Source: an uncultured Hormoscilla sp.
Lineage (GTDB): Bacteria; Cyanobacteriota; Cyanobacteriia; Cyanobacteriales; Desertifilaceae
DNA length: 64,000 nt
NCBI GenBank assembly: GCA_963921275.4
Contig: OZ001293.3
Span: 2,528,001-2,592,000 of the forward strand
Direction of reading: 5' to 3'
A program made the position numbers and the translations under genes. This document shows, piece by piece, positions 1,678 to 51,634 of this stretch. Every line of letters begins with the position of its first letter. Positions within the stretch are counted from its first letter, which is position 1. The notes beneath the pieces are model-generated. The model was given only the letters and a program-made list of their open reading frames with translations. It searched no databases and was not told the origin of the DNA.

Positions 1678-1864
1678 TAAGGGCTGAAGGTATCCATGAC
1701 CCAGCGAAGAAAATCCGCCCCCGAAAAACCTTGATCGACCCAGATGCGAACCAGTCTCCGGAAACGTTGACCCTCCTCTTGTAGACAATTGAGGACAACT
1801 TGTCGCTCCCTCACCCATGGCTGCGCCACGCTGCGCGCTCGGGTACACTAGCGGCAACGACCTT

Positions 1865-2345
1865 CCCGCTGCTGAGACTTGCGTTGCTCGTCCACAAAAC
1901 TGCGGTTTCGACCTATCCGCAGACTCAGACAGCGTTTTTATTCGTTCCGAGCCCAAGATTGATTGGCAGTTTAGGGCGGTTCAATTTACCCGATCGCAAC
2001 TCGGAGAAAACGGCTATCACACGTAAAAATGCCATGAGTCTTGCGCGATCGAGGTTGGCATGTTTGATTCAGATTGCCACCTATGGATAGGACACTTTTC
2101 TAGAACCTGTTTGCCCATACTGCCTCCCCATTACCGCCAGTGTGCCTATCTGCTTTGGCTCTGATTGCGGCCTGTTACCAGCTTCACTCTTTGGAGTTCC
2201 GAGTCCAATCGGTGTGGTCAGGTCGGGAGTCACTGTGTCTCCTACAGGACGGGACTTGCACCCGCATCCAAGGGTCAGTTAGGAAGTTTCTCGGGTGTTC
2301 CCGGACGTTTTCCTCCCAGGCTATGGATTTGGGAACGAATCGCAC
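1865..2345 (-). mobile_element. group II intron 5' fragment (domain I to about II/III) inserted in the IS5 terminal repeat
   Basis: starts GTGCGATTCGTTC at 2345; domain I closing GGAACGAA near 1945; EBS1/EBS2 complementary to the flanking TIR; no domain V seen; inner end approximate. Confidence 0.75.
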
Positions 2346-2626
2346 TCGTGTTTCCAAACATCCTCTTAGGCTCAAAGGGCTATATCTCTTACTGGGTGAG
2401 GGTTTCAGGCGATCCTTTTATATAGACGCTTCGTATGTGCCGCCCTACTAGTTCCTAAGGTAAAGAAGCATTTGTGAACGGCGGGCGGCTATCCTCCCCG
2501 AGAATGGAGAGCTTACCCACCGCATGAGGCTGTAAATTGGGGCTAGTTTTTGTCAAAATTATCAATAATCATCAATAATCATCAATAGAGAGAGTACTAG
2601 AAATCTAGATAGAGAGGATTGGCACT

Positions 2627-3823
2627 ATGCGGTGGAAAAAGGATTCCCGCGCCTTGCGCCTTCTGGGTACCCATGTTTTGGCCTTCGCTCTAGGAGCATT
2701 GCTCGCCCTGAGTGCGGTTTTACCTTCCCAAGCAGATCCCTTACCTGATCGGGCTAAAGTAAAAATACCCCCATCTGCGGTAGAACTGCAAATCCCTCAA
2801 GCTGGCACAAACTTTGTGACAGCAGCGGTGCAGCAGGTAGGGCCTGCGGTGGTCAGAATTGACACGGAGCGCATTGTCACCCGTAACTTCGATCCGTTTT
2901 TTGACGACCCCTTCTTCAATCGCTTTTTTGGTGACAGGTTCCGGCAGCAATTGCCACGGGAAGAACGTCAGCGGGGACAGGGTTCGGGTTTCATTGTTGA
3001 ACGCAAGGGGGTCATTTTGACCAATGCCCATGTAGTGAGTGGAGCCGATCAAGTGACGGTGACGCTCAAGGATGGACGCGAGTTTGAAGGAACGGTGCTA
3101 GGTAAAGATAAGGTGACAGACCTGGCAGTTGTCAAGATTAATGGTGATAATTTGCCTGTGGCTAAGTTGGGAGACTCTGCTGGCGTGCAGGTGGGAGACT
3201 GGGCGATCGCGGTTGGCAACCCCTTAGGATTGGACAATACTGTTACTTTGGGCATTGTCAGTACCCTCAACCGTTCTTCTTCAGAGGTTGGCATTCCTGA
3301 CAAGCGCGTGGACTTCATTCAAACTGATGCGGCGATCAATCCTGGTAATTCCGGCGGTCCGCTGTTGAACTCACGGGGTGAAGTGATTGGCATTAACACG
3401 GCTATTCGTGCTAACGCGAATGGTATTGGCTTTGCTATCCCAATCGATAAAGCTAAAGCGATTAAAGACAAGTTGGCCCGTGGAGAAGAGATTCCTCACC
3501 CCTATATTGGAGTGCGCATTGCCAACCTGACACCGGAACTGGCAAGGGAAAACAATAGCGACCCCAATTCATCGATAGTACTGCCAGAAACTACTGGCGT
3601 ATTGGTGGTGGAAGTGATGCGTGATACGCCTGCAGCTAGGGCTGGTTTGCGTCGGGGAGATGTGATTGTCGAAATTGATGGGAAACCTGTTACTACCGCC
3701 GAGCAGTTGCAGAAGATGGTCGATCGCAGTGGTGTTGGGAAGGTACTGCAAGTTAAGCTAATACGCAACAACCAAGCCCAGCAACTTTCGATCGAGACAG
3801 TTCAACTGCGAGATATTCTGTGA
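2627..3823 (+). CDS. HhoA/HtrA-family serine protease with PDZ domain
   Basis: LTNAHVV, DLAVVKI, IQTDAAINPGNSGGPL; C-terminal PDZ; signal-like N-terminus. Confidence 0.93.
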   Translation: MRWKKDSRALRLLGTHVLAFALGALLALSAVLPSQADPLPDRAKVKIPPSAVELQIPQAGTNFVTAAVQQVGPAVVRIDTERIVTRNFDPFFDDPFFNRFFGDRFRQQLPREERQRGQGSGFIVERKGVILTNAHVVSGADQVTVTLKDGREFEGTVLGKDKVTDLAVVKINGDNLPVAKLGDSAGVQVGDWAIAVGNPLGLDNTVTLGIVSTLNRSSSEVGIPDKRVDFIQTDAAINPGNSGGPLLNSRGEVIGINTAIRANANGIGFAIPIDKAKAIKDKLARGEEIPHPYIGVRIANLTPELARENNSDPNSSIVLPETTGVLVVEVMRDTPAARAGLRRGDVIVEIDGKPVTTAEQLQKMVDRSGVGKVLQVKLIRNNQAQQLSIETVQLRDIL

Positions 3824-3825
3824 AG

Positions 3826-3858
3826 ATTGCGAATCGCGAATTGCGAATTGCGAATTGC
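3826..3858 (+). repeat. heptamer tandem repeat (ATTGCGA)n
   Basis: direct reading; STRR-like. Confidence 0.7.
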
Positions 3859-3959
3859 AATGGGTAGTGGTCAAGATGTAGTGATTTGGGTGTTGCACAA
3901 GGACGGGATGATAAGTAATTGCCGATTATAATAATCGGCAATTACTTATCATAAGTTTA

Positions 3960-5119
3960 TGTTGCACATTTTTGGGATGATACTAGCCAAACGTCAGTTT
4001 GGGATAAGGAGGAAAGGGAGAACTCTGGTAAGCTGAAGATTGTAAAACCTCGTTCAGCCAAGTTCTCCCATGTCTAGTTTAGAAGAACTTTTCTGCCACA
4101 TAGATGACTTCTGCCAAGAATTTGAACCCCAATGGCAAAAACAGATGCTCAGCCACGGCTTAAAAACCCGAAAACGAGCCATCCGACTGCGCCTGAGCGA
4201 AATCATGACGATTCTGGTCGCCTTCCATCAGCATCACTACCGCACTTTCAAACACTTCTACCTCGAACAGGTCTGTCGGTACTGGCATCGTGCCTTTCCG
4301 GGATTGGTCAGCTACACGCGCTTTATTGAATGGATACCTTCTGCATTGATTCCTCTGAGCGTTTATCTCAAACACTGTTTTGGTCAATGCACGAGCATCA
4401 GTTTTATGGATTCGACAAAGCTATAAGTCTGCCATAATCGCCGAATCAAGCAACATCAAGTAAAGACCTTGCCCCTCGAGGAAAAACCTCAGTGGATTGG
4501 TTTTTTGGCTTTAAGTTACATTTAGTTGTCAATGAGTTTGGGGAATTAGTGAATATACAAATCACCCCCGACAATAGGGATGACCGAAAACCAGTTCCTG
4601 ATTTGTTGAAAGACTTATTTGGCAAAGTTTTTGCGGATCGAGGCTAGGTTTCTCAGGCTTGAGCACAAGAACTCTTTGAGACTTATGGCATCGAGTTTTT
4701 CGTCAAACCTCGTCGCAATATGAAGAACAAATTAATGCGGCTTACCGACAAGTTACTGGCCCGTAAACGAGCCATCATCGAGACGATTATCGACCAACTT
4801 AAAAATATTTCTCAGATTGAACACTCTCGTCATCGTAGCCCCGTGAATTTCTGCATCAAAGTTCTGTGCGGCTTAATTTCTTACTGCCACCAGCCGCAGA
4901 AGCCTTCGCTTCAGTTAGACTGGGTTTTACCTGCTTCGGCTTAACCCGAACTGACGTTAGCCAATGGTTGAAAATTAGCGCAGCGTGTTCCCAGGCGGGA
5001 GCCTCTTAACGAGGAAAATTGAAAATTGTTCGTTCAGACATCGAGCTATGACTACTTCTGACTATTTGAATTCACTGCCAACAATTAGCAACCCCTATCA
5101 TCCCGTAGTTGTGCAACGC
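3960..5119. mobile_element. IS1-derived MITE interrupted by IS982
   Basis: ends GTTGCACATTTTTGGGATGATA and CATCCCGTAGTTGTGCAACGC match the IS1 at 44548 and the MITE at 34076. Confidence 0.65.
3991..4957 (+). mobile_element. IS982-family element with transposase pseudogene (4070-4944)
   Basis: TIRs ACGTCAGTT(T/C)GG; 7-bp duplication TAGCCAA; LEELFCHIDDF...[21 protein letters not shown] with internal stops. Confidence 0.9.
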
Positions 5120-5213
5120 TAATTTATAATTAGTAGAAGCTGATTTTACCCAGAAGTATCAATTAGTAGTATAATGGATATTAAGGCTAATATATAATTT
5201 CAAGGAGTTGAAC

Positions 5214-5345
5214 ATGAAATGTTTACAATGTGATTCTGAACTTATCAATAAAAATGGCCATCGGCTTGGTAAGCAAAATTTTATTTTTAAAAATTGTGGC
5301 CGCCAGCTTATTGAAGATTATTCTCCACGAGGGGATCTGAAAGAA
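5214..5345 (+). pseudogene. IS1 insA N-terminal fragment
   Basis: MKCLQCDSELINKNGHRLGKQNF, homologous to the IS1 start near 44706. Confidence 0.6.
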
Positions 5346-5720
5346 GTGAAATGCTGGTAATGATTTCAATTTTTGGAGAGGTCTAATTGTCAACAAGCCT
5401 CTTGGCCCTAGTCTATTAATCAAACTTGATAAATTCATCTTTGTTGTCTATCGACTGAAAATTTATAGATTCTCGTCTCCCCCTGGGGAGATATACCCCC
5501 GAGCACTTTACGAAAAATTACCGATTACTAAAGTGACTCTATAATGGTGTTGCTCCGCTGGGTAAATGCTGCTAAGCAAGGCGCGGAGTTAGATTAATTA
5601 CTAGGGAGCCCGAGCGCGAATAACATTCCGAATGGCTTGACAACCAGGATATATTGGTGTGAGAGAAAAAAGTAAAAGTTACAGCATGAAAAGTTGAATA
5701 AATGCGTCGCTATTCCTTAA

Positions 5721-6378
5721 CGGGACTTAAACAAAAACTTCCCATTAAAGCGACTGAATTGCATGTATAATAGGGATTATACGTCAACGAGCACAGTCTC
5801 ATGATAGTATGGTGATGTACGGAGTTTGCCGAATCTAGTAATTATCAGTAATCTTATTTATAATTTATAGATTTGGGCTACGTATCTGCACTGATTTAAG
5901 GCAAAAATGAAATGAAAGAAATAACTATTCAGGCCATGCCACCTTGTTTCGATAGATGGTGCCGTCGTTTTGACGATCTATTTACTCGCCAAGCCCAAGG
6001 AAGAGAGTTCCGTAATTATTTAAGTGGGTTATTAGGAGAAAGTGAGCGAAAAAATATCGCCCAAATGTCAAAAAATACTGTGGGTGTTTCTTATCATAAA
6101 ATGCATCACTTTATAACCGAATCTCCTTGGGATGCTGATTGTGTGAATGAAAGGCGATTAGAGATAATGACGCTCTGCCGTCAAACAAAACCTAGGCAAA
6201 ATTTTAGCTTAATAGTGGACGATACAGGTCATCGCAAAAGCGGAACAATAACTGAAGAGGTAGGCGGTGTCACTTGACAGGCATGAGAATATAGTATCTC
6301 ATGCCTGTCAAGTGACACCGGGAAGACAATATATTGGGGAAGTTGGCAAAACTGATAATGGTCTTGTAATGGTAACAA
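5721..6378 (+). mobile_element. IS701-family element, 5' fragment
   Basis: left end CGGGACTTA; MPPCFDRWCRRFDDLF...LIVDDTGHRKSG...RQYIGEVGKTDNG; truncated by IS1634. Confidence 0.8.
6265..6320. repeat. 56-bp perfect hairpin insert in the IS701 transposase
   Basis: 24-bp arms CGGTGTCACTTGACAGGCATGAGA, 8-nt loop; GG on both sides; splits EVG|RQY. Confidence 0.8.
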
Positions 6379-8882
6379 CCTACATTCCGCACGACAAATG
6401 TATTACATATTTAACATTGGGGACTATCAACTCTTCTCTTGGATTAAAAATAGAGACAAATATGACTCCTGATTCCCTTATTTAACCTAAAAATTTCTAC
6501 TTACCTTCAACGAGTAACCTACTTGATAGAACGGTACTAAAATTTACTTAAAATTGCTCATCATCAAGTTACTCAGAGGTGCATTTCCCCCAAGCAATAC
6601 TTTGAAGTAACGTTTTTTTTAACAAGATTTAAATTAGTAAATAGTACCGCGCTCCATGCTGGAGGAAAGAATTTCAAAAAGTGTAAACGCTCCTCATTAA
6701 TATTTGAAATCTGTTTAATGCCGTGTTCGATATAGATATGTATTGACTGAAAACATTGAAATATCCAACGCAAAGTTGGTCTATCAGTCAAACGACCTAA
6801 CTGATTTTTTACTCCTGAACCTGTCCGTTTAAGCGTCTTCCTTATCTGGGCCACCTTATACACTAACAAAGATAACGCCATAATTAAATGCTTCTATCCG
6901 CTTTGGGGATTTGAGAAATACACTATCTGCAAAAAACATCGGGTCTTTCAGAAAAGCAAAACATCTTTCTACTGACTGTTGTTTATTTTTGTATGTAGAC
7001 AGCATTTTTTCCGAAGTTAACGCATCAACATCGAGCACGTTCGTTGCTAAAATAAACCTACCGGCCTGTTTTTTTAACTGTTCTACTTTTTCTGAACAAA
7101 TACTAACAGTTGCTTGAATTTGATAGTGGCAGTCTGAGGAACCCTTCTCATCTTTTATTAAAATCGGCTGGGTCTTCCGTCAATTGATGAAATCTTGACT
7201 TCTTTAATAGCTTATTAGCTGCTTTAATAGCATCCGGTTTGCAAGCAAATTGTTGCTTTCTTAACTCTTTTAATTTCTTTGACGCAACTTTTGACTCTTT
7301 TTTTATTTTTTCCTCTAACCTCTTAAGGTCTGCTTCTCTACGTTTTTGACTTTCAACAACTAGCCACCAATGTTGCAACTTAAAATAACGCTCCACGCTG
7401 CTCGTTTTTATATGTGGAGAGCATTTTTTCTGAATTTAGCGCCAATTGATCGAGTTGATTAATTGCTAAAATAAAGCCTCGGTTTTTTTGATGTTGCATT
7501 TGCTCGATACATTCACTAATAGTTGCCTTGATAGTGGCAAGAAGAAGAACCTGTGAAAATGGATTGAGTTTTTATTTCGGTTAGTTCACGATGATTTTTT
7601 TAATAGCTTCTTTGCAGCTATTATAGCATCCGGGTCACAAGGAAATTCCCGAGAACTTAATTCTTTTAATTTCTTTTGGGCAACAGGTAAATATTTGTCG
7701 ATTTTATCCTCTAATTTTGTCTGATTCCCGACGACTTTCAATCAACTAGTCATCTTTGCTCTATATCTCCATAGTTTTGCTTTACTTCTAGGTAACGATA
7801 TCCCACCTGCTCGTAAGAGATAAAATTCTCTGTATCCGCCTCCGTGACTAACTTATTGGCTGCTTTAATAGTAAGTATAACTCGCGATAACCACTTGACA
7901 TCACCTAAGATTTGCAAATTTTCTTGCGTATATAATGCTGCATCAGCTACCATTAATCCTGAAAATTAAAAGGTTTTTTTGAACTCTGTTATTGCTGAAT
8001 TTCTTTTTGGTCTGATGCATTTCCATCTCCCATCTTCATCCATAAGGGAATAGCTCCATCTCCTGAACAAATCAACTGCATTGTATATTGTTTTAAGTTT
8101 GGTCTCTGGGGGAGCATCTCAGATTTGTGAATCAACAAGCAATAAGATTATTTTAGATTTGAGATTCCCGATTTGAGATCGTCACGATCTCAGAATTTAT
8201 AGATTGAGAAAACTAGCTCTGTGCGGGACTTTCAGGTTTACCAAATGCAAGCCAGCAATTAGCGAGAATTATTGCCAAAGCGCAAAAGTGAGATGCACCC
8301 GGTCTCTGGTCTCTATCCATGTGTTATTTTTATCGGTCTAGGTGAGACAACTTTCACCTCTACTTCTGATGTTTTGTATTCTCCATGAACATGAAATGAA
8401 CTTAAATCGTGCTGTTTCCCTTTTGATTTGAGATTTTTTTAATACCTCTAACACCACTAAATATTTCTCCAATCAAGATCGCAGATATTCCGGTTTGACT
8501 CCAACTCCAATTAAGTGTTAAGCATGCTTTTCCCTCAAAAAATCTGGTAAACAGGTATAAGGGTGCTGACACTAATCCTAAAGCATTTATTATCATTGCT
8601 TTAACAACTTGACCAGAGCTGATTTTCTCTAATGAGTGTTTTTCCAATCGCCGGTTAATTATCGATTCTATTCCTATTTCATCGATGATTCCGGCCACTA
8701 ATCCCAGATGCTCTAGATTGGCAATTTCCATCTGCAAGTATCTGAACTTCTTTCACGTTCCCTTGTAACTCAATTTTGGGATTTTGGGGCAAATTTTTTC
8801 CTATCCTGAGTATTTATACTCAATTAAGTACTACATTTGTCGCACAGACATGGTATATTACAATTTGTCGTGCGGAATATGG
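6379..8882 (-). mobile_element. IS1634-family element with fragmented transposase
   Basis: TIRs CC(T/A)(A/T)(C/A)-TTCCGCACGACAAA at both ends; NLEHLGLVAGIIDEIGI, VADAALY, VERCFAFLKDP, QLGRLTDRPTLRWIFQCF. Confidence 0.85.
8110..8300. mobile_element. 191-bp MITE
   Basis: TIRs GGG(A/T)GCATCTCA; 9-bp duplication GGTCTCTGG at 8101-8109 and 8301-8309. Confidence 0.85.
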
Positions 8883-9250
8883 GTTACGGTTGAGAGCACC
8901 TCAATACGAATGATGCTCATCGAACAATCGGCGGATTGCCGAAAGTGATACCCATGCCAGCAACGTGCTTCTACTGTCTCGCCTTCATCGGTAGTCCACT
9001 GTTGTCGCTCATCGGCAACTGGCCAGGTGGATGGATCGCAAGAGCAAGAACTTGTGGCCATGTTTTCGCGAGGGACGACCTTTGCCACTGTAGGAGGGTG
9101 GCTCTCCATAGACACAGCGTAAGGAGCGCAATAGTGCCAATAGCGATACAGGAGAGTCTGCCAGACCCTTAACTAGCGTAGCATTGCCATATTCCGCATC
9201 AAACAACACTCTTCTCTTGCTTGGCATCTAACAGGGGGATGAGGGTTATG

Positions 9251-11670
9251 GTGCGATTCGTTTAGAGTAAAATGACTTGACACGTGTCAAAAAAGGGGAC
9301 CGCTAGCAGGGTTTCAATAGCCCTGACAACTTACAGATGATGGTGGTGAAAGCCCACCCCTCCAGGTGCTCTCGTGACAGCATCCTCCCGACGGTAGCGA
9401 TGGCATCAATCCGTAAAGCGGGAAGGAAAGGCGCTCTAACTGGTAGCCTAAACCGGTCATCGTCGAGCAAGTAGTCATGATGAGCGCAAGCAAAGGTTCA
9501 TAAGTGTCGTCAACATCAACCAGTGTAATAAGGCTGAGACACTGGCCCAAAAGGGAAAGGATAATGGTCATTAGCGGTTGTAATCCGACTAATAAGCACT
9601 GACAACAAACCCGGCATATAGAATCCATCTAAAACTACGATTAATCATCTGTAGGAACGAAGTAACCCAGCTAGGCACTCTCCATCACCGGTCGATAGAT
9701 GGAGTAGTCACCAAAGACGCAACATCTGCTCTCATTTGGCAGGTCATAGCTGGGAAAGATTGAGTGGAGAAGCAAACGCCTATCTGTAATGGATGGGATA
9801 AGCTGACGCCCTCACGGTTTTGTCAATTGTGAAGTTGTGAGTAGTAGTTAATATGTCACGGAACTTAGCCGAAAAGCAAGAGTATGAATGGAAGGAGGTG
9901 CCCTGGCAGGAGCTGGAGCGCCGATCGCGCTAGCGTGGCGCCAGCCATGTCTTCAAGCTACAAAAGCGAATTTACAGAGCGGCACAGGAAGGCAACAAGC
10001 GGAAAGTTCGCAAGCTCCAAGGGTTACTAAATAGGTCATGGTCCACGAAGATGATAGCGGTGAGACAGGTAACACAACAAAACCAAGGAAAGAATGCGGC
10101 TGGTGTGGATGGTGTGAAAGCACTGACTATGGAGCAGCGACTGGAACTGGTAAGTCAGCTCAGAGTATCCAGGAAGGCAAAGGCGAAACCTACACTGCGT
10201 GTATGGATACCTAAGCCAGGAAGGGACGAAAAGCGGCCACTAGGAAGACCGACGATGCACGACCGCGCACTTCAGGGATTGGTCAAACAGTCGCTTGAGC
10301 CCGAATGGGAAGCGTACATGGAAGCCAATTCCTACGGATTCAGACCAGGAAGGGGATGCCACGATGCGATCGAAACGATATTCACCAGCACCAACAAGAA
10401 ACCAAAATGGGTGTTAGATGCGGATATTGCGAAATGTTTCGACAAAATTGACCACTCAGCGCTCCTAGAGAAATTGAATACAACATCACCAATCCGTAGA
10501 CAGATACGGGCATGGCTAAAAGCCGGGGTGATGGACCAGGGAATATGGCAGGACACAGAAGCCGGAACTCCTCAAGGCGGAGTAATATCACCATTGCTAG
10601 CCAATATAGCCCTACATGGGTTGGAAAAGGTAGTGATGAGTCTTGCCCGCACAAAGAGAGAGGAAAAGAAACTAACGATAGTCAGGTACGCCGATGATTT
10701 TGTGGTAATGCACGATGACCGGTCAATGATTGAGCGAGCACAAGGAGTGATTGAGGAGTGGTTGAAGGGAATAGGACTAGAGCTAAAAGCCGAGAAAACC
10801 AGGATATCCCACACACTGGAAGGAGAAAACCCCGGATTTGACTTCCTAGGGTTCAATATCCGACAATACAAAGTAGGGAAACACAGAAGCGGCAAACTCA
10901 GCAACGGAACCCCCCTAGGATTCAAGACCCTAATCAAGCCTAGCGATAAATCCATTAGGAATCATAAAGAGCAACTATCACAGATAGTTCGCCGCCATAA
11001 ATCGGCACCACAGACAGCCTTGATAGTCAAACTAAACCCAATGATAAGGGGATGGAGCAACTACTTCAAGACGGTGGTAAGTAAGGAAACTTACAGCGAC
11101 ATGGATAGCTACCTATGGGAGCTGCTGTGGCAATGGGCAAAGAGAAGGCATCCCAATAAATCGGGCGAATGGATTGCCAAAAATTATTGGGCCATGACCG
11201 GTAAGGACCGGTGGAGGTTCATCGGTAAATCCAAGAAAGGAGAAATAAAGCTAATCCGGCACTCTGAAACTGAAATAATCAGACACACAAAGGTAAAGGA
11301 AACAGCTAGCCCGCTTGACGGTAACCTAGTCTACTGGAGCCAGAGATTACGAAAGAGCCCGGACGTAAGCATGAGAGTGATTAACCTGCTCAAGAGGCAG
11401 GATGGCAAGTGCCAGCATTGCGGACTAACGTTTAAGGACGGCGACAAATGGGAAGTGGACCACATCCTGCCAACCTCACTGGGAGGTAAGGACTGGTACT
11501 CCAACCTACAGTTGCTGCACGACTACTGCCATGATTATAAATCTGCCAGGGATGGCAGCAAAGGCCGTATCCATGACAAGGATGACGAAACTGAGGAGCC
11601 GGATGAGGTGAAAGTCTCACGTCCGGTTTTGAAGACGAGTCGGTACGGTGACGTACTGGCTTAGTTTAAT
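9251..11670 (+). mobile_element. group II intron (IIB, chloroplast-like class), full length, antisense within a transposase
   Basis: 5' GTGCGATTCGTTT; domain V GAGCCGGATGAGGTGAAAGTCTCACGTCCGGTT; domain VI ending AAT; RT ORF in domain IV. Confidence 0.93.
9853..11664 (+). pseudogene. ltrA: group II intron RT/maturase/HNH protein; in-frame TAG at 9931 from a small insert, downstream ORF 10051-11664 open
   Basis: SYGFRPGR, DADIAKCFD, GTPQGGVISPLLANI, YADD, HNH CQHC..EVDH..H..CH; N-terminal W..VPW..LER|VFKLQKRIY in the same frame. Confidence 0.9.
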
Positions 11671-13190: not shown

Positions 13191-13191
13191 G

Positions 13192-14719: not shown

Positions 14720-15722
14720 GTCGGGGTCGAGCCTATTGTCGCCTCCCGACCCTCCCTTTCGGAACCGTGCATGCGACTGGAGCCGCACACGGCTACTGGG
14801 TAGATAGCCCTTGTCATGGGTAGAATTACTCAGGATTACTCCCTTTGTTCCTTTCCTCATGCAATGGAACCCCTTATGGTTAGTCTCAGACTAGATAAAT
14901 GCCTAACTCCGGAAGGTTCGCGGGGGATAACAGTACCAACCCATATAAACCGCTCTTTACTAACATTTACCTAATTTACTAGGTTCTCCAAGTTTTACCC
15001 GGTTAGGTCTTTAGTCCAAAATTAACTACCTAGGATTTCTCCTGGTCTAGAACATTTAAGGCTACTTTCACCCAAAGATTCTATCTATCACCGACCCACG
15101 TCAGCATATCCATAGGAATTACCCGGCGTCTTCCGCATGCTCTTGTCCTGAAGGACACGGCTGGCGCCGCGCTGCCGCGAACGGCTGGCGCTCCCGCAAG
15201 GGATACGGCATGCTCCAGACACCGCCCAGGCATTAGCTTCTTGGGCCATCTCTCCCCTCGTGGCTTGCGCTTTACATCTAACTTGTCCATATGAGGACAG
15301 CTCACGAGAGGTTACTTCGTTCCCTGATATCATTTCACGATACCTTTAGGCCCCTACTTTCCTCCGGTAGTTATCCGAGTACGATGTTAGCCAAAGTACA
15401 AAACTAACACTAACTACATTGACTTTTGTCTCCGGCGCATAAAGCCTTATTTCGCCGGTTCCCATTTACGAAGTTTACATAGGTTCGCTTATTCTAACCT
15501 TGGGCATCTAACAAGCGCGGAGTCACCGGTTTAGGCTACCAGCTATCCTACATTTGAGTCCTCGCTTAGCACCACGGCGATGTGGCTCCGCAGCACCTCC
15601 GACCGGTGTCACCCCCGTACTTGAAGGGAGGGAATTTAACAATAATGATAATCAGAGTTATCTGGCTAATGGAACCAGACCCGACTTTCACCATTACTGG
15701 CTTATGTCAGAACGAATCGCAC
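14720..15722 (-). mobile_element. ORF-less group II intron (IIB), 1003 nt
   Basis: 5' GTGCGATTCGTTCTG; domain V AGCCGTGTGCGGCTCCAGTCGCATGCACGGTT; domain VI ending CCCCGAC; no RT ORF; collinear with 17867-18733. Confidence 0.88.
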
Positions 15723-17866: not shown

Positions 17867-18733
<867 letters not shown>

Positions 18734-35636: not shown

Positions 35637-35645
35637 CAACTGACA

Positions 35646-43010: not shown

Positions 43011-43612
43011 GCTCGAATACATGGTAACAGCGAATTCCCCCAAACTACGGTACTCAGATATGGACAAACAACGCTTTGATGCCTATTACAATCTAATTGA
43101 CGCCCTGCTCGAATGCCCAGAGGGGCAGGAAAACGAGATATTGCAAGCACGCCCAGACTTAGTGGATCGGGAGTTGGTGCAGGTGATGGAGCAGGTAGCG
43201 GCACCCATGCCTGCCCGGAGGAGGGAGATGGCAATGCTCGTTGGTTGCGGAGATTGGCCGCACGCCTAGCAGTGGAGACTTCCTCGGCGTCAGCTACCTG
43301 GGAAGACTATTGGAATTTCTTGATAGAGGTGTTGGAGGTGGTTGCAGAAAACGATGCGCCAGAAGCGGTGTATCCCCTGCTGAAACAAAACCTGGACAAA
43401 CTGGATACTAACTTGTGGCGGGTATTGCAAGACTTCGGAGAATGGCTGCAACAGAGGGAACCGGAAAGAGCACGAAGCATAGCAGCTGATATTGGTAATT
43501 TCAGTATCCAGATGTGGGAGTTTCCCCTGGGCGATCAGGCGATAAATCTAGAGATTGCCATAGCTGGTTATGAAATTTGCCTGACTGTTTTTCCTCCAGA
43601 AGAATTTCCCCA

Positions 43613-44143
43613 AGAATGGGCAACGACTCAGAATAATCTGGGGAATGCTTACAGTGACCGGATAGCAGGAGAGCGCAGCGAGAATCTAGAAAGGGCGATC
43701 GCCTGTTACCATGATGCCCTGAAAGTCTACACCCCCACAGCCTTTCCCGTCGATTGGGCAACGACTCAGAATAATCTGGGGAATGCTTACAGTGACCGGA
43801 TAGCAGGAGAGCGCAGCGAGAATATAGAAAGGGCGATCGCCTGTTACCATGGTGCCCTGAAAGTCTACACCCCCACAGCCTTTCCCGTCGATTGGGCTAT
43901 GACTCAGAATAATCTGGGTACTGCTTACAAAGACCGGATAGCAGGAGAGCGCTCCGAGAATATAGAAAGGGCGATCGCCTGTTACCATGATGCCCTGAAA
44001 GTCTACACCCCCACAGCCTTTCCCGTCGATTGGGCTATGACTCAGAATAATCTGGGTACTGCTTACAAAGACCGGATAGCAGGAGAGCGCTCCGAGAATA
44101 TAGAAAGGGCGATCGCCTGTTACCATGATGCCCTGAAAGTCTA
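43613..44143 (+). repeat. 120-bp tandem repeats (about 4.4 copies) encoding 40-aa TPRs
   Basis: near-identical units. Confidence 0.9.
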
Positions 44144-44547
44144 CACTGCAACAACTATTTCGCTAGAATGCTTCCAAACTGGACGCAACTTAGGCAACAC
44201 AGCTTTTACAGCGGGGTTGTGGGAAACAGCGATCGAAGGATACGCCCTTGCCATCGAAGCCGTAGAAAAGAGTCGTGCTTGGGCGACCACAGAAGAACGC
44301 CGCCAGGAAATCTTAGAACAATCGATCGGGGTTTTCGAAAACATGGTACAGTCCTGCGTCAATACCGGGCAGCTTGACAAAGCCTTAGAATATGTCGAAC
44401 GTTCCTGTTCCAAACGCCTCGCCGACCTCATCGCCCACAACGACCTGTATGCTAAAGGAGAGATTCCCCCAGAAATCCAGCAGATTATCGGCAAGATTAA
44501 CCACCTGCAACAACAAATAGACGGAATGCGGTCTGAGGAAACTCCTC

Positions 44548-45409
44548 GGCGTTGCACATTTTCGGGATGATGGGTTAATGCAGATTATGATAATCTGCAA
44601 TTTTACAGGAAGAATTTATGATTGATATGATTAATTTTTTCTCAGTAGTCATAATTAGTGTTATCATGGAGCGTAAGGGTAACTAATTAGCTAAAGGAGT
44701 TGAACATGAAATGTCCCCGATGTGGTTCTGAAAAAATCAATAAAAATGGTCACCGACGCAGCAAACATAATTTAATTTGTAAGGCTTGTCGCCGTCAGTT
44801 TCTCGAACATTATTATCCGCGCCGTTCCATAGGAAGATGTCAAGAAAAATTGTTTAAAGATGTACGTTAATGGCAAGGGATTTCGAGGTATTGAAAGGAG
44901 CGTCAACCATAATACTCAAATTAATTGGGTAAAACAAGCAGCTAAAGAATTACCGTCAATCCCTGAAAACTACGAGATTCCGGAGGTTGTAGAGATTGAC
45001 GAGTTGCATACTTATGTAAATGAAAAAAAGAATAAAAGTGGCTATGGACAGTCGTAAATCATTTTAAGCCAGGGATTATAACATGGGTATTAGGTGATCG
45101 AGAGCGCCGAAACTTTTAAGCCGGGATATTATAAAATGTTGACAATGCTTTTTCTACGTTACTGATGGATGGCCTGTCTATCAAATGTTTATTGAAGATC
45201 TTGACCATATAGTCAGCAAAACCTACATGACCCGTGTTGAAGGTGAAAATTGTCGATTAAGACATTATCTAGCTCGATTAAAAAGAAAAACATTATGTTA
45301 CTCAAAGTCCGAAGAAATGTTAAGGCTTTCAATTAAGTTATTATTGCACTATCTACGTTATAATTCTGTACCTGTTTCTAGTTAAATCATCCCGTAATTG
45401 TGCAACGCC
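44548..45409 (+). mobile_element. IS1-family element with degenerate insAB
   Basis: TIRs GGCGTTGCACA; 8-bp duplication AACTCCTC; EIDELHTYV, TRVEGENCRLRHYLARL. Confidence 0.92.
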
Positions 45410-46105
45410 AACTCCTCAAAGGGACAAAGAACTCGTAGGAACTAGCAAGCTAAGGTGCGACAAGGCAGCTTTAACAGCCCTCAATGAAGAGATTGCCGCC
45501 TTAGAAGCCGAGAAACTGCAACAGCGGCAAAAACTCTACAAACTCGACCCCGCCATAGCAGGACTTCACCTCAACTTTACCCAACTGCAAAAACTCATCG
45601 ACCAACCTACCACTGCCATTCTCAGTTTCTACACGACAGACGACCACACCCACATCTTCATCCTGCGCCAAAACCAGATTACCCTCCACACCTGCCCCGG
45701 ACAAAGACTAGAGACATTGCAAATCTGGATCGGCAAGAACTGGTTGCGATCCTATATAAACATCAGTAGAGCTGCAATATTCGCAGCCGCTAAGATTCTG
45801 CGATGCCGACTCCAAGCGGTTAATTCCGTGAATATAGCAGATGACCCAGTAGTCGTAAAACTCAATGATGGTTCCGAACAGTTCATTGCCAAGCCCGAGT
45901 TTGAGGAAATGCGCAAACAAGAAAAAGCCAGACTGCACGCCATATGGATGAAAAAGATGCACCCCATTCTCAGGAAACTTGCCCAGCGCTTGCGCCTCAA
46001 CGACTTAATCGCCCAGCACCTATAAGGAATCAGCGAACTCATCCTCATTCCTCACCTGTTACTGCACCAGATTCCCCTCGCCGCCTTACCCCTCGGCAAA
46101 TCCAT

Positions 46106-46228
46106 GTCATTGCGAGCGGAAGGCACTGGAGCGAAGCAATCCCCTGGTGATGTGGGTGAGATTGCTTCGGGGGGCGCATCAAGTTGCCAAACTTCAGACA
46201 GATCTAAACACGCCCCCCTCGCAATGAC
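46106..46228. repeat. palindromic element read in frame within the CHAT gene
   Basis: GTCATTGCGAG..GAAGCAATC..GAGATTGCTTC..CTCGCAATGAC. Confidence 0.75.
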
Positions 46229-46313
46229 AGACAATCGAGTTCAATACCTCGGCGATAAATTCCTTATCCGCACCCTTGCCAGTTGCCAAATCCTCGACTT
46301 TTGCCACCAAACC

Positions 46314-47123
46314 CCAGCTCTTGATGGTAACCTGACAATGGGCACCGTAGAAGATACTAAAGACAACCTCCCCTTCAGCAACTGGGAAGCGCAAACCGTA
46401 GCGGAACAGTACAACATCCCAGACAGGCTGCGACTCAAAAAGGAAAAAGCCAAGGTCAGCGAATACCAGAAGCTATTGCAGCAGGTTAACAGTCTCCTAT
46501 CTACCCACTACGCCCAATCTCGCCTCGATAATCCCCTGGAATCAGCGAAAGATGCGCTACGCGCTTCTTTCGCAGCCCGTCGTTCCTGTCAACTGGCGGT
46601 ATAAGTGGTTATGGCTTTATGGTGCAAGTCCATCCCCAGTCTGGGGAAACATATTGGTGGATCCTCCCTTATGTGCGGATTGACTTGTTTAATAGAGTCC
46701 TGGCCGACTTCGCTCAACCCAGCTCTTGATGGTAACCTGACAATGGGCATTGTAGAAGATACCAAGGACAACCTCCTTTTCAGCAACTGGGAAGCGCAAA
46801 CCGTAGCGGAACTGTACAACATCCCAGACAGGCTGCGACTCAAAAAGGAAATAGCCAAGGTCAGCGAATATCAGAAGCTTTTGCAGCAGGTTAACAGTCT
46901 CCTATCTACCCACCACGCCCAATCTCGCCTCGATAATCCCCTGGAATCAGCGAAAGGTGCGCGTAGCGCTTCTTTCGCAGCCCGTCGTTCCTGTCAACTG
47001 GCGGTATAAGTGGTTATGGCTTTATGGTGCAAGTCCATCCCCAGTCTGGAGAAACATTTTGGTGGATCCTCCCTTATGTGCGGATTGACTTGTTTAATAG
47101 AGTCCTGGCCGACTTCGCTCAAC
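46314..47123 (+). repeat. 405-bp tandem duplication spanning the CHAT/IS630 junction
   Basis: constant offset of 405 between copies; few substitutions. Confidence 0.9.
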
Positions 47124-47355
47124 CTAAAGGTATTGGCAAACAAAAACGGGTAATTCTGGTATGGGATCAGGCTGGATGGCATACTAGCTCTCAAGTAGAA
47201 ATCCCAGAGGGCATGCACATCATGTTCGTGCTCTCTCACTGTCGGGAAATGCAGCCAGCCGAACGCTTATGGCTCCTGACTAATGAAGTGATCGCCAATC
47301 GGTGTTTTGAAACACTAGGACAATTGGAGGAGTTGTTATTTCAGCGTTGCCATTC
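46975..47355 (+). pseudogene. IS630-family transposase 3' fragment
   Basis: HPQSGETFWWILP..VWDQAGWH..QPAERLW. Confidence 0.85.
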
Positions 47356-47532
47356 TCTTCTACTCTCTACTCCCTACTCCCTAACCGAGAAGTATTGGGG
47401 GCAGGGCATCAGTTAATTTATTCTTTTACCTGATGGTTGACTGAGGCTGTGCCCCTACCGGTACCCGATGGTTGACAAATGCTGTGCTCCCAAGGTGAAG
47501 GCCGCACGCTGTAGACCTTAATTCTGAGAGAA

Positions 47533-47742
47533 TTAATTTTTTTCTGTTTCGTCAATTATCCGCTTGAACAATTCAAGTTGTTGTTGTTCTTCTTCTCTAG
47601 TCTGGGGCGGATGGAACCATATGGCTTCTGAGTCAGGAGTACGACGACTATAGAGAATTCGCAAAGGTTCAACCTCCTCCCGATGCGCAAGTGCATAGGC
47701 GATCAGTTCTTTATTCGTCATTACTTCAAAATTATGTTGCAT
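47533..47742 (-). CDS. DUF6887-like small protein
   Basis: NFEVMTNKELIAYALAHRE. Confidence 0.65.
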   Translation of the reverse strand: MQHNFEVMTNKELIAYALAHREEVEPLRILYSRRTPDSEAIWFHPPQTREEEQQQLELFKRIIDETEKN

Positions 47743-47884
47743 TTAAAAACCTCCACAGTCCGTTAGGTGGTACGATGATTTGCAAGTCTTCCTCTGCTAA
47801 AATGAAGACAATTCCCGTTTGATCGTCAAAACGGAATAGCTGGATGTCCCGGTAACAATTGGACAACATCTGACAGACTCGCAT
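47732..47884 (-). CDS. DUF6888-like small protein (start uncertain)
   Basis: CQMLSNCYRDIQLFRFD..VFILAEEDLQIIVPPNGLWRF; overlaps partner gene. Confidence 0.55.
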   Translation of the reverse strand: MRVCQMLSNCYRDIQLFRFDDQTGIVFILAEEDLQIIVPPNGLWRFLNAT

Positions 47885-48232
47885 ACATGCTATGGCTTGT
47901 TCTGCTGTTGGGTAAGTGGTCGGATCTCCTTAATTATGACACAGATACTATAATACTATCGCTATTCGAGCATTGCAGGCATAGTTTTTAGGAACGAGGG
48001 AAAAAATATTACTTCGAGATTTATCACCAATACATTGCCTGATCGTTTGTCTGATATCATGTCCATGATCCTTGGCATTCTCACATAGCTCCAGCAACGG
48101 GCGATCGCGTGCCGGTGCATTCCGGGGTAGGGCATGAAAAGTAGGGAGTGGGGAGTTCCGAGTGGGGAGTGAAAAACCCCAACGCCATTCTCCTCTACTC
48201 TCTACTCCCCACTCCCTAACCGAGAAGTATTG

Positions 48233-48822
48233 GGGTTTCTTTGACTATCTCGGTGGAGATGCGAAAATCACCTCCCAGAAACCCGGTTTCTGGTCTGCTC
48301 GCGATCGGGGAGCGTTCCGATGGGAGCTGAGAAACCGGGTTTCTTTGACTATCTCAGTGGGAATGCGAAAATCATCGTAGAAACCCGGTTTTTGGCCCGC
48401 TCGCGTCCGCGCTGCGTGCGCGCAGCGCATTCGTGTTCTGATGGGAGCTGAGAAACCGGGTTTCTTTGACCATCTTGGTGGGGATACGAAAATCATCGCA
48501 GAAACCGGGTTTCTGGTCTTGCCGCGATCGTGTTCCGGTGCCAGTTGAGAAACCGGGTTTCTTTGACTATCTCGGTAGGGATGCAAAAATCACCTCCCAG
48601 AAACCCGGTTTCTGGTCTGCTCGCGATCGGGGGGCGTTCCGGTGGGACTTGAGAAACCGGGTTTCTTTGAATATCTCGGTGGGAATGCGAAAATCACCTC
48701 CCAGAAACCGGGTTTCTGGTCTGACCGCGATCGGGGGGCGATCCGATGCCAGCTGAGAAACCGGGTTTCTTTGAATATCTCGGTGGGGATACGAAAATCA
48801 CCTCCCAGAAACCCGGTTTCTG
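48233..48822. repeat. tandem array of ~100-bp units built on AGAAACC(C/G)GGTTTCT palindromes
   Basis: about 6 units with alternating homologous spacers; solo pair at 12485-12520. Confidence 0.85.
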
Positions 48823-49050
48823 ACCTGCTCGCGATCGCCCATCGCATGGGACTATCCAAAGGCGCAGTTCCTGACGGTTCGGAGTATACCTGACATGTCA
48901 AGGAGCTAGGGGGTTGACAATCAAAAATCAATCAGCTACTCTAAATAGAGTGCGATCGCGATCGTCGTCAGCATATCCACCAGATCGAATTTAGACTCTA
49001 TGAGTATCAATGTAGCGGGTGCATCTGGTGAGAAGCAAAAATATTAATGT

Positions 49051-49153
49051 CGTAGGTTGGGTCTCCGCACGAAACCCAACCCGCGAGATGTTGTTAGCGT
49101 AGCGAAGCGTGTGTCGCGCTTGTTGGGTTTCAAGAGCGTCAACCCAACCTACG
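49051..49153. repeat. GTAG-type REP doublet
   Basis: CGTAGGTTGGG..AACCCAAC..GTTGGGTT..CCCAACCTACG; related hairpin at 58561-58596. Confidence 0.7.
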
Positions 49154-49543
49154 AATGAACAACGCTTTCTTTAGAAGATGAAGAAAAAGCTCAGGAATTT
49201 TTGAGAGGCATTATTCAACTTATTGAATTCTCCGAACCTTACGATCGCGCAGCGTGCGCGCAGCGCATTCTTGATTAGTGCTGCATGTTACAAGTGAAAT
49301 TTCACCTCTTTCACCTATTCCGGGTTCTGCGCTTCCAGCTAGCTTCGCCAAGAGACCGGTTATCAGGGGCGATCGCCCGGCGAAAAAACACTTGACAAGT
49401 ATGAGATATTTGTGCTATAGAGTATGGGAGGAGATGATGGCGCGGGTTGGATTGAAATAAATGTATTATATTTGTGGTATGATTGCCCCAAAGCAAGTAA
49501 AATAGACTCAATTGCAAGACCAGGTAACTGGGGAGGTACGCCT

Positions 49544-51268
49544 ATCGAAACTATCTACGGAAATCTTCAGGGTCTCAAACCAAGTCAACTGAAGCAGTTA
49601 CAACGACTTTATCATCAGCGCCTTCCGGGCGATCGCCTGACAACGGCAGAATTTGCCCAGCGACTGGCGGCGATCGGCACGGAAATCAACCAACCCCTCT
49701 GTAGCTACATTAATCGCCGGGGACAGGTAATTCGTGTCGGGGTGGGGACTCCCCGCCAAACCCAAATACCGCCTTTGGAGTTACCTCGCTACGGTGCGGA
49801 ACGACTCTGCGGTATTCGCTGCATTGCTACCCAGTTGAAGTCTCACCCTCCGAGTGAAGATACTTTGACAGCAATGGCCATCCAGCGTTTAGATGCATTG
49901 GTCGTTCTCACTCTCACGGGGGGTGGGTTTACTCGCCGAGGTGGTGGGGCGACGGGTTACGTAAAAGAAGCATATTTAGCCCATCTCGTCCCCTATCCCG
50001 TCCGCGTAGCGTGCGCGCAGCGCATAGCAACCTGGACTCTTTCCCCTGTCCTGAGTCTGGACGAACTGGGCGATCGGGATTTTCTGGACTTAGTGTCCGG
50101 ACTGGAAGAGGAGTTCCGCCGGGAATATGTGGCCCAAAAGGGGCGACTCGTGGACCGCGATCGGGTGCTGCTAGTGGGTCTGAGGACGGATGATATCGGG
50201 TCCAGTCGGTTTGAAAATGGTTTAGCAGAATTGACGCGGTTGGTGGAAACTGCTGGTGGCGATGTGTTGGAGGTGATGCGCCAAAGGCGATCGCGCCCCC
50301 ATCCCCAAACCGTAGTCGGTGCAGGGAAGGTGCAAGAAATAGCCTTAACAGTGCAAACAATAGGGGCGAATTTAGTGGCCTTTGACCGAGACCTCTCCCC
50401 GGCCCAAGTCCGGAACCTGGAAGTGCAGACAGGGGTGCGAGTGGTAGACCGAACAGAGGTAATTTTGGATATTTTTGCCCAACGGGCTCAATCTCGGGCT
50501 GGTAAATTACAGGTGGAACTTGCCCAACTGGAGTATACCCTACCCCGTTTGACAGGACGCGGTCAAGCTATGTCCCGACTGGGGGGCGGTATCGGGACTA
50601 GGGGTCCGGGAGAAACTAAGTTGGAAACGGAACGCCGCGCGATCGGGCGGCGCATTTCCCGACTGCAACAGGAAGTTAATCAACTGCAAGCACATCGATC
50701 GCGACTGCGGAGTCAGCGACAGCATCGGGAAGTTCCCAGTATAGCAGTGGTGGGCTATACAAATGCGGGCAAGTCTACCCTGCTGAATACATTAACTAAT
50801 GCGGAAGTTTACACCGCAGACCAGCTATTTGCGACCCTGGACCCCACTACCCGACGGTTGGTAGTGAACGATGGGGAAACGGGGGAGGCGCGGACAATTT
50901 TGCTGACAGATACGGTAGGGTTTATTCACGAACTGCCACCACCATTGATCGATGCTTTTCGTGCCACCTTGGAGGAAGTAACGGAAGCTGACGCCTTGCT
51001 GCATCTGGTGGATCTCTCCCATCCCGCTTGGCAGAGTCACATCCGATCGGTGATGAGTCTGCTATCGGAAATGCCAGTCACTCCCGGACCAGCATTGGTA
51101 GTATTTAATAAGATTGACGAGGTAGATGGAGATACGCTGGCATTGGCCCAAGAGGAGTTTCCCCAAGCGCTATTTATTTCCGCTAGTCAGCGCTTGGGAC
51201 TGAAAACCCTCCGTCAGAAACTCGCCCAGCTAGTTCAATATGCTGTTGCTTCTATACCCCCACCCTAA
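49544..51268 (+). CDS. hflX: GTPase HflX (long cyanobacterial form); probable ATC start
   Basis: ILDIFAQRA, GPGETKLE, GYTNAGKS, DTVGF, NKID; GGAGG before ATC-GAA-ACT. Confidence 0.95.
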   Translation: METIYGNLQGLKPSQLKQLQRLYHQRLPGDRLTTAEFAQRLAAIGTEINQPLCSYINRRGQVIRVGVGTPRQTQIPPLELPRYGAERLCGIRCIATQLKSHPPSEDTLTAMAIQRLDALVVLTLTGGGFTRRGGGATGYVKEAYLAHLVPYPVRVACAQRIATWTLSPVLSLDELGDRDFLDLVSGLEEEFRREYVAQKGRLVDRDRVLLVGLRTDDIGSSRFENGLAELTRLVETAGGDVLEVMRQRRSRPHPQTVVGAGKVQEIALTVQTIGANLVAFDRDLSPAQVRNLEVQTGVRVVDRTEVILDIFAQRAQSRAGKLQVELAQLEYTLPRLTGRGQAMSRLGGGIGTRGPGETKLETERRAIGRRISRLQQEVNQLQAHRSRLRSQRQHREVPSIAVVGYTNAGKSTLLNTLTNAEVYTADQLFATLDPTTRRLVVNDGETGEARTILLTDTVGFIHELPPPLIDAFRATLEEVTEADALLHLVDLSHPAWQSHIRSVMSLLSEMPVTPGPALVVFNKIDEVDGDTLALAQEEFPQALFISASQRLGLKTLRQKLAQLVQYAVASIPPP

Positions 51269-51345
51269 AGGGTGGAGCTACAGGAACAAAGTCCGCCAGC
51301 GCGGGCTTCAGAATATTGGTATAATATCGGAGAGATGCAAAAAAT

Positions 51346-51634
51346 ATGACCAGTATCACTATCAGTAACGTTGATGACAACCTCTTATCCCGCTTACAAA
51401 AGCGAGCAGAAGATCGCGGACTTTCCCTGGAAGAAGAGGTCAAAGAAATACTCCGGGCCGCCGTATTAACAGAAAACAACTCTAAACCATTAAATCTTGC
51501 CGTTCGCGCAGCGTGGCGCAGCCATAGCCATTGAGCGACGTTTTGCCCATTTTGGGGATTTTGAAATACCCACGATCGTCAGAGAACTCATGCGCGAACA
51601 TCCTAATTTTGAGGATTTACATGATTATACTTGA
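51346..51634 (+). pseudogene. FitA-like ribbon-helix-helix antitoxin, frameshifted by a 22-nt insert
   Basis: ITISNVDD..LQKRA..SLEEEVKEIL; continues AIERRFA..REHPNF in a shifted frame. Confidence 0.8.

Follow-up and report, generated by a model that had tools for sequence, protein, structure and literature searches.

A Family of 23-25-nt Hairpin Inserts in a Sponge-Symbiont Hormoscilla, Probably Very Small Mobile Elements of the SDR Type

Introduction

How does a piece of DNA of some 24 nt come to lie at hundreds of places in one genome? The question is raised by a stretch of 64,000 nt (contig C1, positions 2,528,001-2,592,000; hereafter the window) in the 7.03-Mb genome (47% G+C) of a sponge-symbiont cyanobacterium of the genus Hormoscilla. 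An earlier note on this DNA had reported a minute double-hairpin insert at seven places in the window. All seven copies were found at the coordinates and on the strands that it gave (Table 1), and a census of the window tolerating three mismatches detected no eighth copy. In our reading, the seven inserts are very probably non-autonomous, very small mobile DNA elements of the small dispersed repeat (SDR) type. The units would be copied rather than moved, with up to 123 identical cores persisting in one genome. They would enter at the target C-C-G-A|D (D, A, G or T; the bar marks the point of entry), making no repeat and often overwriting the target A, and different variants would have burst in different Hormoscilla species. 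Selection would then have sorted the copies, with a 24-nt class staying in frame inside genes and 22- and 23-nt classes for the most part either lying in non-coding DNA or breaking genes. The element would act as folded single-stranded DNA of a given strand, and its insertion would be the work of a structure-specific enzyme acting in trans, with a conserved module as its recognition signal.

Empty Sites in Related Genomes

The source genome (referred to as G000) was compared with four genomes of the same genus (G001-G004), which have ~90-94% DNA identity to the window. The copies are insertions. In the GTPase gene hflX, which hosts copy 6, the alignment shows exactly 24 nt to be absent in all four of these genomes, and sites 5, 6, and 7 are all empty in same-genus genomes: the 24 nt of copy 5 are missing in G004, where the base after CG differs, and the 22 nt of copy 7 are missing in G002 and G004. 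Contigs from three other sponge-metagenome runs, which may not be independent of the sources of the sister genomes, also cross sites 5, 6, and 7 and lack the corresponding number of letters there (24 at site 5 in run X23; 22 at site 7 in runs X1 and X2). A fourth run, which is probably the source sample, agrees with the window.

The sister species G002 was compared at length, using one whole 873-kb contig and flank pairs mapped in both directions. Altogether 48 copies from G000 and 28 from G002 could be placed in the other species, and these 76 reduce to 63 distinct contexts, of which 32 differ by exactly the core plus 2 nt and one has a copy in both species. In G002 the family occupies sites of its own, and the commonest G002 variant occurs 25 times on one contig vs. 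twice in all of G000. The earlier note had proposed recent mobility and had named a lack of empty sites in relatives as the finding that would speak against it. Empty sites were found instead (in all four relatives for hflX), and with sites 5-7 empty in relatives, the sister species filled elsewhere, and a single one of the 63 contexts shared, recent mobility stands. At one place, the minus-strand copy at C1 5179850 of G000, contig C3 of G002 has just TTCGCA between the same flanks, which could be either a deletion footprint or a precursor.

Copy Number and Arrangement

The exact 20-22-nt cores of the seven window copies occur 123, 75, 40, 38, 13, 8, and 7 times in G000. A loose structural pattern matches C1 522 times, compared with 107, 111, and 132 times in Markov simulations of order 1, 3, and 5 (one simulation each); the comparison with chance that the earlier note had called for therefore puts the family far above the simulated expectation. 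Filtering the pattern matches for the family left 363 perfect-stem copies in G000, all on C1 (one of the 363 is an overlapping double call at window 48402). When grouped by flanking sequence, they fall into 261 contexts, and most copies are independent events, because 226 of these contexts are singletons. The remaining 137 copies belong to multi-copy flank clusters, and the hitch-hiking of some copies on larger repeats and introns is real.

The copies also lie close together, with 64 spacings below 1 kb vs. 18.6 expected, and neighbors within 200 nt are mostly in the same orientation (29 vs. 3 in opposite orientation). Some form tandem arrays whose period is the unit itself, for example 5 x 22 nt at C1:4359431-4359539. 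Such tandems are to be expected if the retained left-hand target can be hit again, although slippage would give them too. Tandems of mixed variants were seen at C1:5761908 and C1:4382680. As a separate observation on the assembly, contig C3 of G000 (31,420 nt) has 17.6% G+C, compared with 47% in the chromosome, and is probably foreign or organelle-like DNA.

The Target and the Junctions

At the 32 clean empty sites, the four bases before the point of entry are C (21 sites), C (24), G (26), and A (28), followed by A, T, or G and never by C, hence C-C-G-A|D. The earlier note had placed the insertion after CG, which holds as a part of this fuller target, except that the base following CG is often overwritten. 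The net gain is the core plus 2 nt, that is 22, 23, or 24 nt, and we name the three size classes accordingly. As the earlier note had stated, there is neither a terminal inverted repeat nor a target duplication in the empty-filled pairs of G000 and G002. The simplest form, T + core + T after the A, fits 13 of the 32 empty sites without a nearby mismatch. The base immediately left of the insert (the target A) is changed at 12 of the 32 sites, mostly to T, while each of seven neighboring positions is changed at 1-4. The unit is thus best written as W Y core W, replacing one target base. The earlier note had left its boundaries uncertain; the real unit also takes in two bases (x and Y) 5' of the start then given and a final T, with a real length of 23-25 nt.

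The junction bases, tallied with one copy per flank cluster, differ between size classes. The two bases before the core are mainly A-T (138), T-T (63), and T-C (30). Junction bases travel with the unit, because T-C precedes cores of the 24-nt class (28 of 122) but hardly those of the 22-nt class (1 of 71). The base to the right of the unit is T in 89 of 122 copies of the 24-nt class vs. 9 of 71 in the 22-nt class (Fisher p = 1.5e-16). The 24-nt class is mostly found at CGA|TCG, the center of the HIP1 palindrome, with C (43), G (30), or T (29) as the preceding base among the 122. The 22-nt class enters at CCGA|R, with A or G to the right, which is not HIP1, and neither it nor the 23-nt class makes use of HIP1. 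Targets are not limiting, because C1 holds 4,754 HIP1 and 13,721 CGATCG sites. Where A-T stands on both sides of the insert, its placement is ambiguous and compatible with HIP1 position 3/4.

Two other accounts of the junctions were tried and rejected. If a staggered cut at CGATCG duplicated 2 nt (A-T) of the target, A-T would stand before the core and A after it, which is the case in only 23 of the 122 24-nt cores; the non-HIP1 sites without duplication also rule this out. A hairpin-opening footprint would leave complementary junctions, and there is no complementarity in AT|A (23), TC|T (28), or TT|T (14).

Build of the Unit

The unit of 23-25 nt consists of W-Y, a 9-nt module (CGCG-N-AGCG), a second hairpin, and a closing W. 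A 22-nt core amounts to two 9-nt modules linked by T-G. We searched for the 5' module alone as G-W-Y-CGCG-N-AGCG. Directly behind it stands a perfect hairpin (4 bp or longer) in 216 of 273 cases in G000, in 56 of 62 in G002, and in 35 of 38 in seven other genomes, compared with 11 of 273 for sequence 48 nt downstream and 5 of 273 for shuffles. Behind this one module stand 22 different stems of the second hairpin (hairpin 2), 15 of which begin with T, and the covariation of hairpin 2 is real. The earlier note had held that the stems covary. This is true of the second stem, while the first (CGC/GCG) is invariant and so uninformative on pairing. Its description of the element as defined by structure likewise holds as far as hairpin 2, where 22 complementary stems follow an identical 5' module. 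Its further claim that both loops lengthen together is contradicted by the commonest variant of the sister species, which has a 3-nt first and a 4-nt second loop.

Nearest-neighbor DNA folding predicts the two-hairpin fold for most copies. At sites 4 and 5 one long hairpin is favored over two, and the best fold of the site-4 variant is a single 8-bp hairpin (z = -2.54 against shuffles). Loops of the G-N-A form occur in both hairpins on the given strand only; DNA mini-hairpins with a G-N-A triloop are unusually stable.

Copies within Genes

The size classes differ in their relation to genes. We counted a copy as deep inside an open frame when a stop-free frame extends at least 50 codons on each side. 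This holds for 57 of 216 copies of the 24-nt class vs. 9 of 128 of the 22-nt class (Fisher p = 4.5e-6) and for 2304 of 5000 random trials with 25-nt windows. The 22-nt class is thus mostly excluded from genes, in which copies of the 24-nt class persist in frame. Among the 20 longest of the 57 host frames, which were scanned against Pfam, 17 have families, and the genes so identified include CobN/Mg-chelatase (ChlH), DnaB, DNA polymerase I (PolA), arginyl-tRNA synthetase, PurD, TamB, and a GH116 hydrolase. The element is translated in five frames (e.g., RVACAQR, CAARTLR, and ALRARYA), with 22 of the 57 copies sense and 35 antisense to the host gene. The DnaB helicase gene at C1:5754690-5757677 (locus L222) carries an intein with a LAGLIDADG domain as well as an in-frame copy of the element.

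Two genes in the window illustrate the two outcomes. The hflX gene, orthologs of which are present in 41 of 41 genomes searched, is read through copy 6, whereas copy 7 splits the gene of a FitA-like ribbon-helix-helix antitoxin: the present frame stops at 51534, and the old C-terminal frame can still be read at 51494-51634. The earlier note had claimed that removing the insert restores the expected protein in three genes. We can say so of these two, hflX (in frame, +8 amino acids) and the antitoxin (a +22-nt frameshift). The ORF of the PIN-domain toxin downstream seems intact while the antitoxin is frameshifted, and the pair may be decaying or deregulated.

The Seven Copies and Their Surroundings in the Window

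The positions and builds of the seven copies and of the neighboring genes are collected in Table 1. The earlier note had spoken of seven unrelated sites, which does not apply to site 2 (in a five-copy sequence), site 3 (in a repeated sequence), or site 4 (in a local repeat). The flanks of copy 1 are a singleton in G000, and the transposase remnant beside it is a Pfam DDE_Tnp_1_2 match at 1387-1602(-).

Table 1. Copies of the element and neighboring features in the window (positions in nt of the window; RT, reverse transcriptase; ORF, open reading frame).
Feature	Position	Strand	Build or domains	Setting
Copy 1	1817..1839	-	A-G + 20-nt core (CGC-GCA-GCG / TGGC-GCA-GCCA) + T	Decayed region adjoining DDE transposase remnant
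Copy 2	9924..9948	+	A-T + 22-nt core, 4-nt loops in both hairpins, + T	Repeated sequence
Group II intron RT/maturase/HNH ORF	10051-11664		Intron domain 5 at 11594-11670(+)	
Copy 3	15157..15181	-	T-T + 22-nt core (CGC-GGCA-GCG / CGGC-GCCA-GCCG) + T	Repeated sequence
Copy 4	48406..48430	+	T-C + 22-nt core (first loop GCT) + T	Inside local repeat
Copy 5	49244..49268	+	A-T + 22-nt core + T	Intergenic, 156 nt upstream of hflX ORF
hflX GTPase gene	49424..51268	+	Pfam GTP-bdg_N, GTP-bdg_M, MMR_HSR1	Hosts copy 6
Copy 6	50001..50025	+	T-C + 22-nt core + T	In frame in hflX, adds 8 residues (VRVACAQR)
FitA-like ribbon-helix-helix antitoxin gene	51325..51634	+	Pfam FitA-like_RHH	Split by copy 7
Copy 7	51503..51525	+	T-T + 20-nt core + T; net +22 nt	Frameshifts 3' part of FitA-like antitoxin gene
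PIN-domain toxin ORF	51531..52007	+	Pfam PIN	Downstream of split antitoxin

Copy 2 sits ~100 nt upstream of the ORF of a group II intron. Its flank cluster has five members in G000, all with the same core, and the sister species has a homolog of this sequence without the 24 nt. Two group II introns were seen in the window, in regions 9300-11670 and 17867-18700, the second with domain 5 at 17867-17944(-), and copy 2 is carried by a five-copy sequence family that takes in the first of them. The variant of copy 3 occurs eight times in G000, with conserved flanks, and its flank cluster has two members. The stretch 15225-15691 beside it is similar to 18207-18677, which adjoins the domain 5 of the second intron, and from this similarity copy 3 would appear to be situated within an intron. 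At the place of copy 4, one sister genome reads GCG|ATCGG with no insert, and in another a different variant is present. Around copy 4, in window 48300-48900, lies a local repeat of ~100-190 nt, with units starting GGTTTCTTTGAC...

Distribution across Cyanobacteria

The Hormoscilla cores were searched for in 401 genomes across the phylum and matched in six: G000 (290 matches), four genomes of one other family (13, 9, 8, and 1), and a sixth in which the match is not a true copy. They were absent from two genomes of other genera of the G000 family, and a reversed pattern used as a control gave 0 matches in all 401 genomes. In a separate pattern scan of named genome records, many of the matches listed fall in three Hormoscilla sp. 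records, and others in Nodularia sp. UHCC 0506, Richelia sinica FACHB-800, and Cylindrospermum sp. NIES-4074. The earlier note had likened the element to the SDR elements of Nostoc, and the identical cores in the Nodularia and Richelia records make this kinship apt. Matches outside the cyanobacteria were rejected: all 11 inspected are single, lie in G+C-rich records, and lack the second hairpin, and we read them as chance. Carriage by phages was likewise rejected, as none of 21 pattern matches in viral contigs has the family flanks and hairpin.

The 5' module has a wider distribution. Across 301 genomes of the order, it occurs in 39-390 copies in five Hormoscilla genomes, in 571-1,172 copies in one genus of another family, and in ~100-190 copies in several further families, compared with 0-16 in reversed controls. 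Low counts are ambiguous, because GATCGCG overlaps HIP1. A form of the module outside HIP1, CGTTCGCGNAGCG (CGTT...), was counted in five genomes, each of a different family, and has 518, 131, 98, 94, and 50 copies there (controls 0-4). All inspected copies of this form have the same build of module plus hairpin, with other stems, and the junction base is T in the CGTT copies counted in the genomes of other families. The 5' module is thus abundant well beyond the Nostocales-type family that also has identical cores.

How the Element Might Move

The route that we consider most likely is insertion by a structure-reading enzyme acting on folded single-stranded DNA, because the boundaries are sharp, the module is conserved, and the G-N-A loops are strand-specific. 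To our knowledge, the Y1/HUH single-strand endonucleases are the only enzyme class with such habits. That an enzyme of this class moves the element is possible but doubtful, and nothing in our data ties one to it.

Several observations weigh against our main reading of the element. Gain and loss were polarized by four relatives for hflX and by a single pairwise comparison for most other sites, and 29 of the 63 mapped contexts show other length differences, which we leave uninterpreted. Hairpin 1 never varies; it might serve as a sequence signal and not as a hairpin. Shuffled sequences fold as well as the 22-24-mers do (z from +0.10 to -1.32 in 8 of 9 folds), and it is the covariation of hairpin 2 that carries the whole case for structure. 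The copies show no orientation trend along the chromosome, where the GC skew is too weak to place origin and terminus. Overwriting one target base is no trait of Y1 transposition that we know of.

Nor did the search for the mobilizing enzyme yield one, with the links tried through Y1 and REP-associated tyrosine transposase (RAYT) genes (REP, repetitive extragenic palindrome), IS200 ends, and phages all negative. G000 holds just two Y1-family genes. The first (C1:241795-242256; locus L185:1417-1962) is a single-copy gene with the signature of subclass 1.2 (Y..NQ..HH), in which Gln replaces the first His of the HUH motif (QDH). The second (C1:1348421-1349019) is RAYT-like, with NHYH and YIHYNP motifs, and a frameshift splits its frame. 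According to the available part of one survey (PMC6006769), a signature of the NHYH/YIHYNP type marks a Y1 subclass restricted to cyanobacteria, and subclass 1.2 is cyanobacterial and has no known partner repeat. No module lies within 3.5 kb of either gene, and locus L185 contains no copy of the element. Homologs of the first gene occur in 113 of the 301 genomes of the order and are absent, among the matches listed, from the four genomes richest in the module (571-1172 copies), which do have many other Y1 genes. The co-occurrence with RAYT or HUH genes that the earlier note had proposed to examine accordingly finds no support in these comparisons of Y1 genes, flanks, and loci.

The nearest rival would take the units for REP-like or IS200/IS605-derived DNA that a Y1 (HUH) transposase or a RAYT, with its gene at another place in the genome, cuts and inserts in single-stranded form; we regard it as somewhat unlikely. 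Hairpins without terminal inverted repeats or target duplication, placed 3' of a short fixed sequence, are what it would produce, and Y1_Tnp is matched in all nine module-carrying genomes searched with that family. It also draws on the published record, as available in part: hairpin 2 is preceded, at a distance of two bases, by G-N-A-G (with any of the four bases as N), which recalls the GTAG tag of REPs (CGTC, the alternative tag, stands before 28 of 122 24-nt cores); REPs are known in replication and repair genes (PMC3733652), and there are cyanobacterial Y1 subclasses without a known partner repeat (PMC6006769), the signature of one of which, subclass 1.2, is found in the gene at C1:241795. 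However, both Y1 genes of G000 look impaired and neither is flanked by the element, the NCBIfam model REP_Tyr_transpos gives 18.5 bits against a cut-off of 80, the copies are single or in direct tandem rather than inverted doublets (29 vs. 3), 26% of the 24-nt class lies inside genes, and one target base is overwritten. Module-like motifs are not the ends of IS200-type elements either: at 22 such loci in one Nostocales-type genome they are somewhat enriched (within 1 kb of 7 of 20 loci, and at 1 of 2 others), but in positions and orientations that vary.

Copying through RNA, with a reverse transcriptase writing the copy back into nicked DNA, is the route that Elhai and colleagues reportedly proposed for SDRs in 2008, and for Hormoscilla we hold it to be unlikely. 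The genome is rich in group II introns and RT genes, an RT ORF lies 100 nt from copy 2, and variable junction bases would suit untemplated or slipped synthesis. These bases are, however, inherited by subfamily and not random, copies stand in both orientations in host genes (22 sense, 35 antisense), comparison of the element with Rfam gave no family that reaches the gathering threshold, and G-N-A triloops on one strand would point to DNA rather than RNA hairpins, from what is generally known of DNA mini-hairpins. Very unlikely, in our judgment, is a process with no dedicated enzyme, in which short-homology recombination or template switching joins a resident copy and a target while other copies hitch-hike on larger repeats. 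Donors and targets do have short flank words in common (CCG on the left; TCG or AG on the right), 137 of the 363 copies are in multi-copy clusters, and tandem arrays could come from slippage. Against it stand the filled-empty differences, which concentrate at one position (12 of 32 vs. 1-4 each) with no variable conversion tract, the 226 singleton contexts, the fact that only this family fills CGATCG sites although C1 offers 13,721 of them, and the 9-nt module kept across many families of the order, which suggests a conserved recognizing factor.

It is scarcely credible that the sequence is not mobile at all and is either a functional signal, such as a regulatory hairpin or one that binds a protein, which arose in situ time and again, or an artifact of assembly. 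Strong conservation of the 5' module and the location of some copies near gene ends would fit a signal, but presence and absence are clean at 22, 23, or 24 nt with no stepwise substitutions, the element is read in five frames in unrelated proteins, a single orthologous site is common to two species, the family is found in assemblies of several species and in the contigs of separate runs, and the empty sites contradict the idea directly. A bolder extension, which we likewise think improbable, would see in module plus variable hairpin an order-wide class of the smallest mobile DNA, moved without a transposase by a repair-type reaction in which one nucleotide, the A of CCGA, is exchanged for a folded single strand of ~25 nt. 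This strand might be an excised hairpin oligonucleotide ligated into a one-nucleotide gap, and donor sites would be refilled from sister copies of the chromosome, these cells being polyploid.

Comparison with Known Small Repeats

The SDR elements (SDR1-8) of Nostoc punctiforme and its relatives were reportedly described by Elhai and colleagues in 2008 as units of 21-27 nt, the structure of SDR4-6 being kept by compensating changes. The Hormoscilla element resembles them in its size class (23-25 nt), its cyanobacterial host, and its hundreds of dispersed copies, in a secondary structure with compensating changes (here in hairpin 2 only), in recent mobility seen as presence and absence at orthologous sites, and in precise insertion in or at HIP1, with nested or adjacent copies. 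In the available parts of later papers, SDRs are stated to be confined to Nostocaceae (PMC5861425), and SDR5 is a 21-nt unit of a few heterocystous strains (PMC13756078) that sits between HIP1 bases 3 and 4 (PMC4390886). In contrast, the host Hormoscilla lies outside Nostocaceae and the 5' module is present in five further families; unlike SDR5 as described there, the element adds 22-24 nt, enters at C-C-G-A|D, and in its 22- and 23-nt classes does so off HIP1. We consider the element best filed in the SDR class, an assignment made by the descriptions of SDRs and not by their published consensus sequences.

Rickettsia palindromic elements are ~100-150 bp long and belong to another phylum, whereas the Hormoscilla unit adds only 8 residues. 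Like these elements, which are mentioned in PMC3733652, it is selfish palindromic DNA that occurs in frame in essential genes. Similarly, REP and REPIN sequences, so far as the same paper and PMC3116915 are available, are short, G+C-rich hairpins in hundreds of copies with a short motif beside a variable stem, and occasional in-frame copies of REPs occur in replication and repair genes (PMC3733652). These REPs are mainly extragenic, often form inverted pairs, and flank a RAYT gene; the Hormoscilla copies stand alone or as direct tandems, the 24-nt class has a quarter of its members in genes, and the sole RAYT-like gene is disrupted, with no copy in its vicinity. IS200/IS605 elements and their ORF-less derivatives, as covered in the available part of PMC6006769, also have hairpins (at their ends), no terminal inverted repeat or target duplication, and insertion beside a fixed short word, but they are ~10 or more times longer; here a target base is replaced and there is no link to tnpA.

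The 9-nt module does not appear in the available portions of the main text and supplements of PMC3733652, and the literature listing on Hormoscilla repeats, as far as it extends, has nothing on small repeats. Relative to this available literature, the host genus, the insertion rule with its overwritten base, the contrast in selection between size classes, and the spread of the 5' module may all be new, although part of this may be in the 2008 paper.

Significance

The movement of elements of ~24 nt has been an open question since their description in 2008, and Hormoscilla gives unusually clean data on it, with hundreds of identical copies in one genome size classes that fare differently under selection, and sister species that have empty sites for nearly all of the copies. 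The insertion rule (C-C-G-A|D, a gain of core plus 2 nt, one overwritten base, and inherited junctions) provides a yardstick for any proposed mechanism. For the host, these elements put eight-residue loops into essential proteins and can break genes. For the cyanobacteria at large, the abundance of the module well outside the family in which SDRs were described suggests that a conserved factor of these bacteria recognizes it.

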